Positions 1,460-7,836 of a stretch of DNA of 13,432 bases are shown here, in pieces. The notes below the pieces were generated by a model, which saw only the letters and a list, made by a program, of their open reading frames with translations, did not search any database and was not told where the DNA came from. Numbering within the stretch: position 1 is the stretch's first letter; each line of letters begins with the position of its first letter. Position numbers and translations under genes: made by a program. This stretch comes from an uncultured archaeon (lineage in GTDB: Archaea; Asgardarchaeota; Thorarchaeia; Thorarchaeales; CAZPUN01): contig CAZPUN010000045.1 of NCBI GenBank assembly GCA_964589775.1, positions 1 through 13,432 of the forward strand, read 5' to 3'.

Positions 1460-1720
1460 ATGACATATCTTACATACAGGAAATATACTCGTTTTATTCC
1501 AGTAGTGTTTGGATTGATACTCGCAATAGCTGGTGCGGCTATTGTATTAATACCTATTGATACAATCCCACAGTATCAGCTAGTTGGGGGACTCGTGGCT
1601 CTTATAGGCTTCATATTTATCGTTCTGGGATTTGCAAAGCCTATAAAGAGAAGAGACTCTGTGAAGGCTCCAATTAAACTTGACACAGATGTGCCTCCAC
1701 CGCCTCCACCCCCTGATTAA
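1460..1720 (+). CDS. Small 2-TM membrane protein (86 aa) with C-terminal polyproline tail
   Basis: AGGTGA SD upstream. Two hydrophobic segments (FIPVVFGLILAIAGAAIVLIPI; LVGGLVALIGFIFIVLGFA) flanked by basic residues. Ends DTDVPPPPPPPD. T-rich tract after the stop. Confidence 0.85.
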   Translation: MTYLTYRKYTRFIPVVFGLILAIAGAAIVLIPIDTIPQYQLVGGLVALIGFIFIVLGFAKPIKRRDSVKAPIKLDTDVPPPPPPPD

Positions 1721-1730
1721 ACGATATACG

Positions 1731-1760
1731 TATTTTCTACTTTATCTTTTTTTTATTTTC
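1731..1760 (+). terminator. Putative archaeal oligo-U (T-rich) terminator
   Basis: tattttctactttatcttttttttattttc immediately downstream of the stop at 1720. Confidence 0.5.
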
Positions 1761-1839
1761 CTGCTCTATGGGACGATAAGACTAATAACATATATTAGTT
1801 AGTAGACATATTAATTTTTAATGAAAGGAGGTAAAGGTA

Positions 1840-3225
1840 TTGTCTGAAGAAGAATTAAGGAGAGCTTTAGAGGCTGCAACCAAGAGTGCAGGTCAACAAT
1901 CTTATGAGGCTGCAGCACTCAAGTACGAGGAAGCAGCTAAACAAGCATTAGCTATGGGAGATACTGCACGTGCAAATCAATTATTTGAAAAGGCTGCCAG
2001 TACTTTTATTGAGGCTGGAGATCTTTTGACAAACAATAAACGATATAGGGGAGCTACATCTGCTTATGCTCATGCTGCGAGGATTTATGAGCAAATGAAG
2101 CAGCCAGCACTTGCGAAGAGGTTGTATCTTAAGGCTGCCCAGAGTGCCAGTAAATATGCAGATGACCTTGCAATGTTTGAAGAATATGCTAAGGCTGCAT
2201 CTATTGCAGTTGCTGCTGGATTCATTTACATATTGGGTGGCGATTCTGATACTGGAAATGATGTTGTAAATAGATTCAAGCAAAAGTATGGGTCTAAGGT
2301 AGTCACCCCAGATGCTCAGCGAATTCTATCCATACTTGAACTCATAAATAACGCGACGAAAACACTAAATGTTGACCTACTTTCCAGTGCTGAAAATATT
2401 ACACGTACCGAATTTCGAAGTGGTTTAGTTCAAGCCAAGAGTGAAGACCTATATCCAATAACTGAACGTGCATTTGAGCTCATACGCGAAAATATGCGTT
2501 CAAAGATTAAACTACCTAAAGTTATCGCAGAGCTGGAAATCCCGATTGATCTTACATTTAAAGAAGCATTCACTCTAAATCTAAATATTAAGAATATGGG
2601 TGATGGCGAGGCTAAGAATGTTACTGTTGAGTTCTTTGTTCCCGATGGCTTACAAGTTCTCTCAGGAAATGAACGCCAGACAATCCTGCGAATAAATCCC
2701 AACGAGACTCAAGTTGCATCATTAAAACTTAAAGCAACAACTGATATGGTTGGTGAGAAGACATATTCATTCAAGGCAAAAGTTTCATACATGGATATAC
2801 TTGGCTCCGCATATTCCATTCAAGTAGGACCCGTGGATATCGTTCTTCGTGATTATAAAGAATCTGAAAAATTAACAAAAGACGTATCTCAGCTGGAGGC
2901 AAAATTATCTAATCTTAAGCAGACAAGTCACGATACTGCCGCATTAGATGACATGCTGATGGACCGAATAATCAATATCTTCGAGCAGGCTGCGAAATCC
3001 GTATTAGCATCGATCTCTGAAAAAGATATGGCTAAAGCACGTTCAAGATATGAATTGACTGCAGAACTCGTCGATATGCTTGGAAATACAATCAATGATG
3101 AAGCATTGAAGAAGCAGCTTGCAGAGAACTTGGCAGCGAAGATCAACGAAGAAAAGCGCCGTATATTAACTGAGATGAAGGATAAAATAAACCAAATGTT
3201 TGCCGAATTAGAAAGAGAATTCTAA
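1840..3225 (+). CDS. Cytoplasmic multidomain protein: SNAP-like/TPR-like helical repeats (aa ~1-220), CARDB/NEW3-like Ig beta-sandwich (aa ~225-337), C-terminal helical/coiled-coil region
   Basis: TTG start preceded by GGAGGT. Repeated Y/F-x-x-A-A helical pattern (YEAAALKYEEAA, FEKAA, YAHAA, YLKAA). LNLNIKNMGDGEAKNVTV...INPNETQVASLKL...KVSYMD is a CARDB-like Ig signature. Heptad-like C-terminus. No signal peptide or TM segment. Confidence 0.75.
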   Translation: MSEEELRRALEAATKSAGQQSYEAAALKYEEAAKQALAMGDTARANQLFEKAASTFIEAGDLLTNNKRYRGATSAYAHAARIYEQMKQPALAKRLYLKAAQSASKYADDLAMFEEYAKAASIAVAAGFIYILGGDSDTGNDVVNRFKQKYGSKVVTPDAQRILSILELINNATKTLNVDLLSSAENITRTEFRSGLVQAKSEDLYPITERAFELIRENMRSKIKLPKVIAELEIPIDLTFKEAFTLNLNIKNMGDGEAKNVTVEFFVPDGLQVLSGNERQTILRINPNETQVASLKLKATTDMVGEKTYSFKAKVSYMDILGSAYSIQVGPVDIVLRDYKESEKLTKDVSQLEAKLSNLKQTSHDTAALDDMLMDRIINIFEQAAKSVLASISEKDMAKARSRYELTAELVDMLGNTINDEALKKQLAENLAAKINEEKRRILTEMKDKINQMFAELEREF

Positions 3226-3246
3226 TAATATTGCTTGCATATATCG

Positions 3247-3283
3247 GACCTTTTCCTCCTTTCTTTCTTGAGGAGGAGAGGTC
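3247..3283 (+). other. Intergenic stem-loop (pyrimidine arm / purine arm)
   Basis: gaccttttcctcct-ttctttcttg-aggaggagaggtc forms ~13 bp (one G-U pair, one bulged U) with a 10-nt loop. Confidence 0.55.
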
Positions 3284-3310
3284 TCAAATTGTTCAAAACC
3301 GGTGGAATAA

Positions 3311-4489
3311 ATGAAAATTTACTTTGGGGCCTGTGGTATTGGGCTTGGTCATGTAGGCCGTTGTCTACAAATAGCTGATAAATTGAATGAGCAAGGTCAC
3401 AAAATATTTTTCTCGACTTACTTAGATGGGGTCAATTTAGTTAAGAAGAGTGGGTATCCGTATTCTGTATCGCCTCCCGTTATAATGGTTGAGCATCCAG
3501 ACGGTACAGTAGATACACCTCTTACCACAACGAAAGTTATTTACAACGTGCTATCCGCATTGAAGCAATTGATGCATGAAATTCGTGAGATGATAAAGTT
3601 CAAACCTGATGTTGTAGTTTCGGATACACGTCTTACAACATTGATTGCTGCGAAGATTCTACGAATTCCACGAATATTAATTACCAACCAATTAAAAGTA
3701 ATAATTCCGCGATGGGCTCCACCTTCATCTATTAAGGATGCTCTGCTAGGTCTTGTTGAAGGTACTGTTTTTCGAATTTTTGTCCTGTTTTGGCATATGG
3801 GTAATCCGATATTGCTTGTAGACTTTCCGCCGCCTCTCACGATTTCCAAGAAAAATATTGTCATCCCGCCAGCTCTTAGAAAGCGATCGTTCTACTTGGG
3901 TGTTCCGACACGTGTTAAGCCCGAAGATCTTCCGCCGATTCCCGAAATTCGAAAAAAATATGGACTTGATGATAAGCCATTAATCTTCATTACAATAAGT
4001 GGTACGAAGCATGAAAAAGAAGGAATTCTAAAGAAAATTGAGAAAATTCTACCGAAAATTGGTGGGGACTTCACTATTGTGCTTAGTCGTGGGATTCCCA
4101 ATGGAAGCACTAAGCCACATGTTTTCAAAAATATCCATATATACGATTGGGTTGAGAATCGATATGAACTTATAAAAGCTTGCGATATTGTTGTTTCTCG
4201 GTCCGGTCAGACAACTGTTGCGCAAGGAATGTATTTTGGTAAAAAAATGATTCTGATTCCTGTTAAAAACCATACAGAGCAAATGGGGAATGCGGAGTCT
4301 GCTGAAGATATGGGTTTTGCTCGAGTATTGCCTCAAGATGATGTATCAGCCGAAAATCTTCGAAAGCTTATAGAAGACGTATTAAACTCAGAGAGTATGG
4401 CAAAAAGAGCGGTAGAAATTTCCAAAAAAGTAAAGAAATATGGGAACGTAGATGTATTCATTGATGAAATTATTAAGAAGGCTCAATAG
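3311..4489 (+). CDS. GT-B glycosyltransferase, MurG-like GT28 / MJ1255-type
   Basis: N-terminal GACGIGLGHVGR (G-x-G-H-x-x-R), KPDVVVSD, and C-terminal DIVVSRSGQTTVAQGMYFGKKMILIP...HTEQMGNA (Glyco_tran_28_C-like). SD GGTGGA upstream. Confidence 0.88.
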   Translation: MKIYFGACGIGLGHVGRCLQIADKLNEQGHKIFFSTYLDGVNLVKKSGYPYSVSPPVIMVEHPDGTVDTPLTTTKVIYNVLSALKQLMHEIREMIKFKPDVVVSDTRLTTLIAAKILRIPRILITNQLKVIIPRWAPPSSIKDALLGLVEGTVFRIFVLFWHMGNPILLVDFPPPLTISKKNIVIPPALRKRSFYLGVPTRVKPEDLPPIPEIRKKYGLDDKPLIFITISGTKHEKEGILKKIEKILPKIGGDFTIVLSRGIPNGSTKPHVFKNIHIYDWVENRYELIKACDIVVSRSGQTTVAQGMYFGKKMILIPVKNHTEQMGNAESAEDMGFARVLPQDDVSAENLRKLIEDVLNSESMAKRAVEISKKVKKYGNVDVFIDEIIKKAQ

Positions 4490-6387: not shown

Positions 6388-6786
6388 TTATTGTGATAAA
6401 GTTAGTGCTATTTTCTTTGCGTACCTTCTAAGTACTGTAATTAATAGACCCATTGATGTCATTTCTCTACCCGCTGCGGTTATGAGGAAATCTCCTGCGT
6501 TTGAAAATACCATGAATCCGGTTTTCCCGCGCACAGTTACTTCTACAAGGTCTCCTAAATTCATCTTTTCTGCAGCCATGCCTCCCGTTGCAAGTAACGC
6601 TGCGCTCATTGCCGCCATGAGGTCTGGGTCTACTGTTGAATCTTCTGTTGCAAAATACGCAACTTTGACTCCTTGCTTCGTAAATACGCCCACGGCCTCT
6701 AAGTCTTCTTCTTCATAAATTAAACTACTCAATATTTTATTGAGTTCTTGTTCTTTTTCAGGTGAAATTATTCCTATATTTGACAT
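6388..6786 (-). CDS. Roadblock/LC7 (LAMTOR2/MglB-like) domain protein
   Basis: Pattern L-x-x-I-L-x-x-L...LEAVGVFTKQGVKVA...DLMAAMSAALLATGGMAAEKMNLGDLVEVTVRGKTG...MGLLITVLRRYAKKI is typical of Roadblock domains. Purine-rich SD (GGGAGAGG) upstream. Confidence 0.9.
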   Translation of the reverse strand: MSNIGIISPEKEQELNKILSSLIYEEEDLEAVGVFTKQGVKVAYFATEDSTVDPDLMAAMSAALLATGGMAAEKMNLGDLVEVTVRGKTGFMVFSNAGDFLITAAGREMTSMGLLITVLRRYAKKIALTLSQ

Positions 6787-6807
6787 TTTTCCCTCTCCCT
6801 GTGTATT

Positions 6808-7836
6808 TTATTTTGGTACTAATTTCTTCTTTGGTTTGCCTTTCGGTTCGACTTGAGCTTCTTCGCTTTCACTCTTGAAGAATGTGATCAAGTCGCTTAA
6901 TCGTTCTTTCATCTCGCTCTTAATTGGACTTAATATTGCATCCGGAGTTCCTTTGAGAAATTCAATTGCAATTACTTTGCCATTTCTGATGATTACACGT
7001 GGAATGAATCCCTCTGCTAAGAATGTTCCTTCTGGAGGATTCTTAACTCGCTCGAGACGTTTTTCAACCTTTTCAGTTGTGAAGAACTTGATTTTATGTT
7101 CTGCTATTGTGAATAAATCATTGTTTATAACAACGAGTTCTTTCTTATAGCCTTTTGGTGGTTCGAGTGCTTGTAATTCTTGAATTATGGCTTGGATTTC
7201 GCTTGGTGTCATCTGAGTTGTTGGTTGAGCTGCGGCTTGTGCTGTTGCAGCAGCTGAAACTTGAGGTGCGGGTCTAGCCTTAGCTGTTGATGTGGTGGCG
7301 GCTGAAACTTGAGGTGCGGGTCTAGTAGTTGTAGTAGTGGGTGCGGGTCTAGTAGTTGTAGTAGTGGGTGCAGGACGGGAAGTAGTCGTAGTAGGTTGTG
7401 GGGCAGGTTTTGTAGTAGTTGTGGTAGTTGTAGTTGTTTTAGGTGCAGGACGGGAAGTAGTTGTAGTAGTTGTGGTAGTTGTAGTTGTGGGTTGTGGTTT
7501 GGGTTTTGGAGTTGGTTTGATGACCTTTTTTACAGGAGCTGAAGCTGCAGACCCAGTCAATGCAGCGAAAAATTGGGGTTTCTCATCGCCTTCATCCGTA
7601 GGCTTTACAGTATAATTAAATCCGTATTCAGACCTTAATTTTGTAGCGACTCTGGCTCCAATAAATTTCTTTCGTACTACTGCCTCTGAACCTTTCCAGA
7701 GCCATATTGTTTTTGAATCAGGATCCACAACAATAATTACTGATGTGGGTTTCAGAATATCTTTTGATGGTGTAACCGGGATGCTTTCACCATGCTCATT
7801 AACTTCAAAAGCGTCTACCATTCTAATCACTGACAT
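6808..7836 (-). CDS. Gelsolin/cofilin-like domain protein (Asgard 1DGelX-like): gelsolin-like domain, Thr/Pro-rich linker, C-terminal domain of unknown function
   Basis: aa 1-94: LKPTSVIIVVDPDSKTIWLWKGSEAVVRKKFIGARVATKLR...DEGDEKPQFFAAL matches the gelsolin-repeat signature (IWxWxG...A-x-x-A...EGxE-x-x-x-F). aa ~101-210 are low complexity. aa ~210-295 look globular (PPKGYKKELVVINN...PPEGTFLAEGFIPRVIIRNGKVIAIEFL). Start could be Met6 (7821). Confidence 0.82.
   Translation of the reverse strand: MSVIRMVDAFEVNEHGESIPVTPSKDILKPTSVIIVVDPDSKTIWLWKGSEAVVRKKFIGARVATKLRSEYGFNYTVKPTDEGDEKPQFFAALTGSAASAPVKKVIKPTPKPKPQPTTTTTTTTTTTSRPAPKTTTTTTTTTKPAPQPTTTTSRPAPTTTTTRPAPTTTTTRPAPQVSAATTSTAKARPAPQVSAAATAQAAAQPTTQMTPSEIQAIIQELQALEPPKGYKKELVVINNDLFTIAEHKIKFFTTEKVEKRLERVKNPPEGTFLAEGFIPRVIIRNGKVIAIEFLKGTPDAILSPIKSEMKERLSDLITFFKSESEEAQVEPKGKPKKKLVPK
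7253..7488. repeat. Intragenic nested tandem/direct repeats encoding the Thr/RPAP linker
   Basis: Perfect 27-bp tandem duplication (7313-7339 = 7340-7366). 25-bp direct repeat (7253-7277, 7301-7325). 20-bp repeat (7367-7386, 7442-7461). 28-bp repeat (7410-7437, 7461-7488). All periods are multiples of 3. Confidence 0.9.

Follow-up and report, generated by a model that had tools for sequence, protein, structure and literature searches.

Does the archaeal gene at positions 1840..3225 (+) of the DNA studied here encode a prokaryotic relative of the SNAPs, the proteins that connect SNARE complexes to the AAA+ ATPase NSF? The gene lies in a stretch of 13,432 nucleotides (the window; contig CAZPUN010000045.1, in our numbering C45) from the metagenome-assembled genome of an uncultured Thorarchaeales archaeon (GCA_964589775.1; 2.16 Mb, 96.75% complete). 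According to the list of open reading frames (ORFs) and their translations, its product P0001 is a soluble protein of 461 amino acids (aa), with a TTG start at 1840 and a TAA stop at 3223-3225. A Shine-Dalgarno-like GGAGG can be read directly in the sequence at 1827..1831 (+), 8 nt 5' of the start. The original prediction, which concerned the interval 1840-2500 (aa 1-220 of the ORF), had recognized SNAP-like helical repeats and proposed an adaptor for a Cdc48/NSF-like ATPase. It described the sequence accurately, since all peptides quoted there (YEAAALKYEEAAK, ANQLFEKAASTF, ATSAYAHAARIYE, AKRLYLKAAQ, AGFIYILGGDSDTGNDVVNRFKQKY and PDAQRILSILELINNATKTLNVDLLSSA) are present in the translation of 1840-3225, and the helical repeats are also as described; the SNAP-specific likeness, however, was not confirmed, and the adaptor role found no support beyond a loose likeness of the fold. 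Our verdict is that P0001 is a lineage-specific scaffold and not a demonstrable SNAP. Probably it is an Asgard-specific modular scaffold of the cytosol, without enzymatic activity.

The AlphaFold2 model of P0001, based on an alignment of 53 sequences, reached a predicted local distance difference test score (pLDDT) of 92 and contains three modules. The head (1840..2511, +; aa 1-224) is a TPR-like alpha-solenoid of 11 long helices, which is loosely SNAP-like. Modelled in isolation, it likewise folded into 11 helices (pLDDT 94.4, predicted template modelling score 0.88), so that the helical repeats proposed for the N-terminal part are genuine. The helices alternate between approximately 17 and 24 residues in length, which results in a repeat of about 47 aa; in the model, the solenoid closes with a more compact group of helices, and the last five helices depart from the regular superhelix. 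Stacked antiparallel alpha-hairpins and structural matches to TPR domains place the head in the TPR-like alpha-solenoid superfamily. None of the Pfam TPR models reached its cut-off on the head (best: TPR_6 with 15.5 bits and TPR_8 with 13.9 bits), and the head is a divergent repeat.

The second module (2512..2853, +; aa 225-338) is an immunoglobulin (Ig)-like beta-sandwich of the CARDB/TRAP-beta/macroglobulin type. No other module of the family is as strongly conserved; P226 and G254 are invariant, and N252, G256, A258 and D319 nearly so. The Pfam CARDB model (PF07705) scores 23.5 bits, which is at its cut-off, and this score and the beta-sandwich fold agree with membership in the CARDB/E-set group. 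Weak TRAP_beta matches occur in 8 of the 53 family members, and TRAP-beta and macroglobulin domains are the best structural matches. The tail (2854..3222, +; aa 339-461) comprises a linker, where RDYKESEKL is conserved, a spectrin-like bundle of three helices (340-420) and, at the end, a long helix (421-460), and the protein ends with ...AELEREF after the coiled coil. This tail is about 130 aa shorter than those of the Thorarchaeota orthologues and is likely a rod or an oligomerisation module.

Structural matches were found for each of the three modules singly, and the structure searches revealed no solved chain with the domain combination of P0001. Among the top 50 matches of two VIA searches with the full model, none covers solenoid and sandwich together; they align essentially one module, and five matches of the C3/C5/alpha-2-macroglobulin type extend to residue 397. 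P0001 contains neither Cys nor Trp. Neither a transmembrane (TM) segment nor a signal peptide was found by hydropathy scan and inspection of the N-terminus, because the Kyte-Doolittle mean over 19 residues peaks at 1.40 and the N-terminus is acidic. Catalytic families were absent in the Pfam and NCBIfam scans, the latter giving no match at all, and a phmmer search against the PDB sequences yielded no significant match.

Over 53 diverse members of the family the module borders are nearly constant (head 212-231 aa, sandwich approximately 114 aa, tail variable), which indicates a selected architecture. The orthologue P0003 also has 461 aa, is 87% identical and starts at the same residue as P0001. 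A search seeded with an alignment of 14 closer sequences detected full-length relatives with 27-33% identity in 63 species genomes, nearly all of them Candidatus Thorarchaeota and a few Promethearchaeota or Hermodarchaeota, which places the host in the Thorarchaeia order, in a family of its own. In an exhaustive phmmer search the full-length cluster representatives numbered about 50, with lengths of 437-700 aa. The gene occurs in a single copy and was found in 55 of the 60 genomes of the sister family; in the high-quality genomes of the sister-family set, with the host genome counted in, it occurs in 24 out of 24. When 29 other Asgard families were sampled, the family profile matched strongly and over the full length in 14 (E < 1e-80), weakly and partially in six and not at all in nine.

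While the modules themselves are evident from the model, we infer their binding roles from it. One partner, a protein or a peptide, would bind in the groove of the solenoid and another to the Ig domain; the helical tail would be a rod, which dimerises or acts as a spacer between the heads, and the protein as a whole would connect or arrange other components in the cytosol or close to the membrane. The disassembly of SNARE-like complexes together with an NSF-type ATPase would not be expected of P0001.

The SNAP likeness of the head reflects the common long-helix repeat of the TPR_12/SNAP type and not membership in the SNAP family. The likeness had been supposed to be more specific than that of a generic TPR, but the sequence comparisons do not confirm this. 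The Pfam SNAP model (PF14938), with a gathering cut-off of 25 bits, stays below this cut-off throughout: the entire protein reaches 18.6 bits, aa 1-225 alone 23.5 bits and the gene in a six-frame search of the genome 20.2 bits; weak SNAP matches are present in 9 of the 53 family members. The hidden Markov model (HMM) of SNAP is moreover promiscuous for TPRs. Of 14 well-known control genomes from bacteria and archaea it matches 10 (two above the cut-off), and in the host genome it scores higher than on P0001 at nine other places, one of them a canonical TPR_12 protein with 84 bits. Real SNAPs themselves carry precomputed TPR_12 matches. Because of this overlap and the matches in the controls, a SNAP match in a prokaryote is unspecific without a TPR control.

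The same picture emerges from the comparison of profiles by hhalign, for which 14 source-named alpha- and beta-SNAPs, retrieved with a 78-residue bait fragment, served as the SNAP reference. The head family aligns to SNAP with a probability of 31.6% (82 columns), whereas it reaches 44.5% with the ordinary TPR_12 protein of the host genome; SNAP and the same TPR_12 protein align with 94.7%. Relations between the family and the other SNAP-HMM-positive host proteins are weak (11-76%). The SNAP C-terminal bundle motif as given in the original prediction is accurate, and the top local hhalign match indeed pairs SILELINNATKTLNVDLLSSAENI with KLLKKLLDAHEEQNVDAYTDAVKE of SNAP. However, this match between the C-terminal half of the head and SNAP is not significant (E 0.21, Prob 0.3%), and a profile of this half retrieves no SNAP from the PDB sequences at E ≤ 10. 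With the profile of the entire head, the matches to alpha-SNAP and Sec17 there have E values no better than 0.2-0.8, extend over approximately 54 residues and are in a different register, and the TPR sensor PH0952 is matched at E 2.8e-6; the whole-family profile detects designed PPR/CTPR proteins and amphipathic helices of the ApoA-I type, and nothing else. Pfam places aa 13-121 of the head on positions 81-183 of the SNAP profile, hhalign aligns aa 50-139 with SNAP 39-120, and the structural alignment by VIA superimposes aa 1-224 on Sec17 88-289. Three methods thus arrive at three different registers, as is to be expected of a similarity on the level of the repeats.

Could P0001 still be a true but highly diverged SNAP, a proto-SNAP whose head docks onto a Cdc48/NSF-like AAA+ ATPase and presents coiled-coil substrates for unfolding or disassembly? 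We regard this as clearly improbable, although SNAP is the best helical-repeat match of the isolated head in Pfam and some structural results point in this direction. Sec17/alpha-SNAP chains rank first when the model of the head is searched with Foldseek (E 8e-3 to 3e-2, template modelling (TM) score 0.26-0.39, prob 0.94-1.0), and HAP40, which has been proposed to be a SNAP derivative, is also among the structural matches. However, no Foldseek match reaches E ≤ 1e-3, the SNAP chains are intermixed with Rap TPRs, designed repeats and HAP40, and a shape search of the ESM-Atlas with the head retrieved only generic TPR clusters (TM score ≤ 0.53). The matches are not outright limited to generic solenoids lacking a SNAP-like bundle, the outcome that the original prediction had named as speaking against it. 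The head lacks parts with which SNAPs work. It does not attain the full length of a SNAP (11 helices and 224 aa versus 14 helices and approximately 290 aa), and most full-length structural alignments (9nly, 9ng2, 9nlu, 9n22) begin at Sec17 residue 88, leaving the head without the first 87 or so residues of SNAP. In alpha-SNAP, the N-terminal hairpins carry the membrane-attachment loop. At their other end SNAPs possess a free acidic C-terminus, whose penultimate Leu stimulates NSF, whereas the head passes directly into the beta-sandwich at aa 225 and, since it continues into the Ig domain, has no free C-terminus. Finally, no SNARE motif (Pfam PF05739) above the cut-off was found in the 96.75%-complete host genome.

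Some points weigh against our interpretation of the head and of the protein. The SNAP alignment behind the hhalign comparisons consists of vertebrate alpha- and beta-SNAPs only (effective number of sequences approximately 1.4), which limits its sensitivity. SNAP chains cover most of the head structurally (183-189 of 224 residues) and top the Foldseek list, and because of this largest coverage and first rank there may be a real but very distant relation of the modelled head to SNAP. Furthermore, the role as a scaffold is deduced from the predicted architecture alone.

The gene neighbourhood could be taken as a further argument for a SNAP-like adaptor. In Thorarchaeota (loci L013-L075, e.g. L022:1736-7779) there is a conserved co-directional run of genes for Cdc48 (in locus L022 at 1736-3919), in some loci a GH38 alpha-mannosidase (approximately 24 loci), a 290-aa unknown protein, a microprotein of about 90 aa, a 96-aa unknown protein and the TPR-Ig-coiled-coil protein, followed on the 3' side by a convergent aminotransferase gene, a Roadblock gene, a gene for approximately 305-342 aa and ABC-transporter genes. 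The Cdc48 of this run has the domains CDC48_N and CDC48_2 and two AAA domains, and its gene is located upstream and co-directional at a distance of 1.9-4.8 kb in 35 of the 38 Thorarchaeota loci whose upstream flank spans 4.5 kb or more. In the window, only the microprotein gene is retained from this order upstream, and GGR and GNAT genes replace the rest. The two Cdc48-type ATPase genes of the host genome lie on contigs C35 (30460-32622) and C37 (8299-10317), away from the scaffold gene on C45, and in 14 loci of other Asgard families the ±8 kb around the gene contain no AAA+ gene. Since the conserved order extends to functionally unrelated genes (GH38, aminotransferase, ABC transporter), the proximity of Cdc48 looks like inherited synteny and not like an operon. 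The linkage was therefore rejected as functional evidence, being absent from the window and the 14 distant loci. Apart from a loose resemblance of the fold, the proposed role as an adaptor for a Cdc48/NSF-like ATPase is unsupported.

Four more proteins encoded on contigs C21 and C48 of the host genome have SNAP as their only or by far best Pfam match at or above the cut-off. These are a stand-alone SNAP-type protein of 264 aa (L079:1204-1995, -; 30.8 bits, profile positions 97-262), proteins of 239 aa (L083:1489-2205, +; 25.1 bits) and 600 aa (L080:619-2418, -; 56 bits), and a protein of 417 aa with a SNAP-type head (25.2 bits) and a TRAPPC13_C-like sandwich (L082:1414-2664, +; TRAPPC13_C 25.4 bits, below the cut-off of 27.9 bits). 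Judging by their sequences, the four look like an Asgard expansion of long-helix solenoids. Pfam SNAP matches in Asgard genomes are largely a generic TPR signal, and calls of an "archaeal SNAP" need a TPR control. One could go further and assume that the family of P0001 and these stand-alone or Ig-fused SNAP-only paralogues descend from an archaeal stock of long-helix solenoids that gave rise to the eukaryotic SNAP, and that the head still docks onto Cdc48 as a substrate adaptor in Thorarchaeia, but we consider this combination very improbable.

Among known systems, the SNAP family (alpha-, beta- and gamma-SNAP and Sec17; 1qqe, 2ifu, 3j96, 9nly) shares with P0001 a long-helix alpha-hairpin solenoid, which in the model of P0001 also appears to end in a more compact bundle, as well as the weak Pfam match. 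P0001 differs from it by the missing N-terminal residues, by a head whose C-terminus leads into an Ig domain and a coiled coil, by a host genome in which no SNAREs were found and by an AAA+ linkage that is not conserved outside Thorarchaeota. Long-helix proteins of the TPR_12 type (LGN/Pins, NASP SHNi-TPR and AspH; 5a7d, 4jhr, 7w5m, 8re5) resemble it, as seen from the hhalign match and that to PH0952, but their repeat is 34-42 aa long and not about 47 aa as in the head of P0001, where in addition no Pfam TPR model reaches its cut-off and the last five helices are irregular. The sandwich has its counterparts in the luminal domain of TRAP-beta (SSR2; PF05753) and in CARDB/macroglobulin Ig domains, as seen from the Pfam matches. 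In the solved translocon complexes TRAP-beta faces the lumen, and an extracellular location is typical of CARDB domains, whereas the sandwich of P0001 is flanked by helical modules in a protein without signal peptide or TM segment.

For Thorarchaeota, membrane-remodelling sets, TRAPP-like or other, have been reported, and by analogy P0001 might be a coat- or tether-like trafficking subunit that is accessory to such sets. We consider this unlikely, although the order of a solenoid followed by an Ig/ASH-like sandwich is also that of TRAPPC8/9/10/11, which consist of an N-terminal TPR solenoid and C-terminal ASH domains (PMC4094338), and loosely that of the adaptin/COPI trunk with its appendage. 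The resemblance to TRAPPC8/9/10/11 is one of layout only, with no sequence or multi-domain structural match, and these proteins are far longer than P0001 with its 461 aa, the ASH regions of TRAPPC10 and TRAPPC11 being located beyond residue 700 (PMC4094338). Foldseek lists COPI large subunits, Integrator and the appendages of adaptin and gamma-COP for the full model, and the structural matches also include GAE-type domains of the BBSome, a PapD-like domain of HYDIN and the 540-678 fragment of OCRL1. The 417-aa host paralogue, with its sub-threshold TRAPPC13_C match, and a TRAPPC11 Gryzun cluster in the Atlas feature search (0.76, a lead only) fit such a role as well. However, all multi-domain Foldseek matches have a TM score of about 0.18 and a root-mean-square deviation of about 20 Å, and the VIA matches comprise single modules. 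A global likeness of the type "solenoid plus appendage", as in COPI or Integrator, was rejected for these reasons. Furthermore, the TRAPP, adaptin and COPI families of Pfam are absent in P0001 and the 53 members, and the sandwich has its top matches in TRAP-beta and macroglobulin domains and not in ASH domains or appendages.

A different kind of membrane connection would be offered by the product of the microprotein gene upstream of the scaffold gene (1460..1720, +), which was identified by clustering of the neighbours and from the sequences. It encodes 86 aa with two hydrophobic stretches, apparently TM segments, and a C-terminal PPPPPPPD tail. The gene is located upstream and co-directional in 55 of 63 Thorarchaeota loci and in the window, and the tail is near-invariant (...RDSV..PV.T..DD.PPPPPPPD). 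The microprotein is possibly functionally associated with the scaffold gene, and its sequence is that of a protein that could act as a membrane anchor for a proline-binding partner. P0001 would then be a membrane-recruited scaffold, with the TPR groove binding the predicted cytoplasmic DTxVPPPPPPPD tail so that the microprotein would tether the rod-shaped P0001 to the membrane. The binding of short C-terminal peptides is common among TPR domains, such as that of EEVD by Hop and of PTS1 by PEX5, and the microprotein gene is the only upstream neighbour common to the host and the sister family. On the other hand, the 96-aa gene separates the two genes in Thorarchaeota, a different gene is found upstream outside the order of the host (for instance, in one family, a small ORF that appears Sm-like by eye), and the adjacency may be plain synteny. 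We therefore judge this kind of recruitment decidedly unlikely.

The 96-aa unknown protein, whose gene lies directly 5' of the family gene in Thorarchaeota (e.g. L022:5617-5904), recurs in one other Asgard family (f22) inside proteins of 248-282 aa that are encoded a few genes away from the orthologue in four loci (L087:11548-12291, L092:11626-12432, L097:11892-12737 and L098:11500-12297). The host copy is located at C21:78236-78523. A recurrent association of the 96-aa protein with the scaffold gene is possible. At 6388-7836 (-) of the window there are a Roadblock gene and, upstream of it, a gene for 342 aa, in an order that is kept downstream of the family in approximately 21 Thorarchaeota loci.

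If the head of P0001 were a true, working SNAP, disassembly of the NSF/SNAP type would predate eukaryogenesis; the present evidence does not bear this out. In the papers searched on Asgard eukaryotic signature proteins and in the structure surveys among them, we found no SNAP-like/Sec17 or CARDB-bearing family of the kind of P0001. What remains is a widely conserved, single-copy and uncharacterised Asgard protein with an unusual cytosolic layout of TPR, Ig domain and coiled coil.
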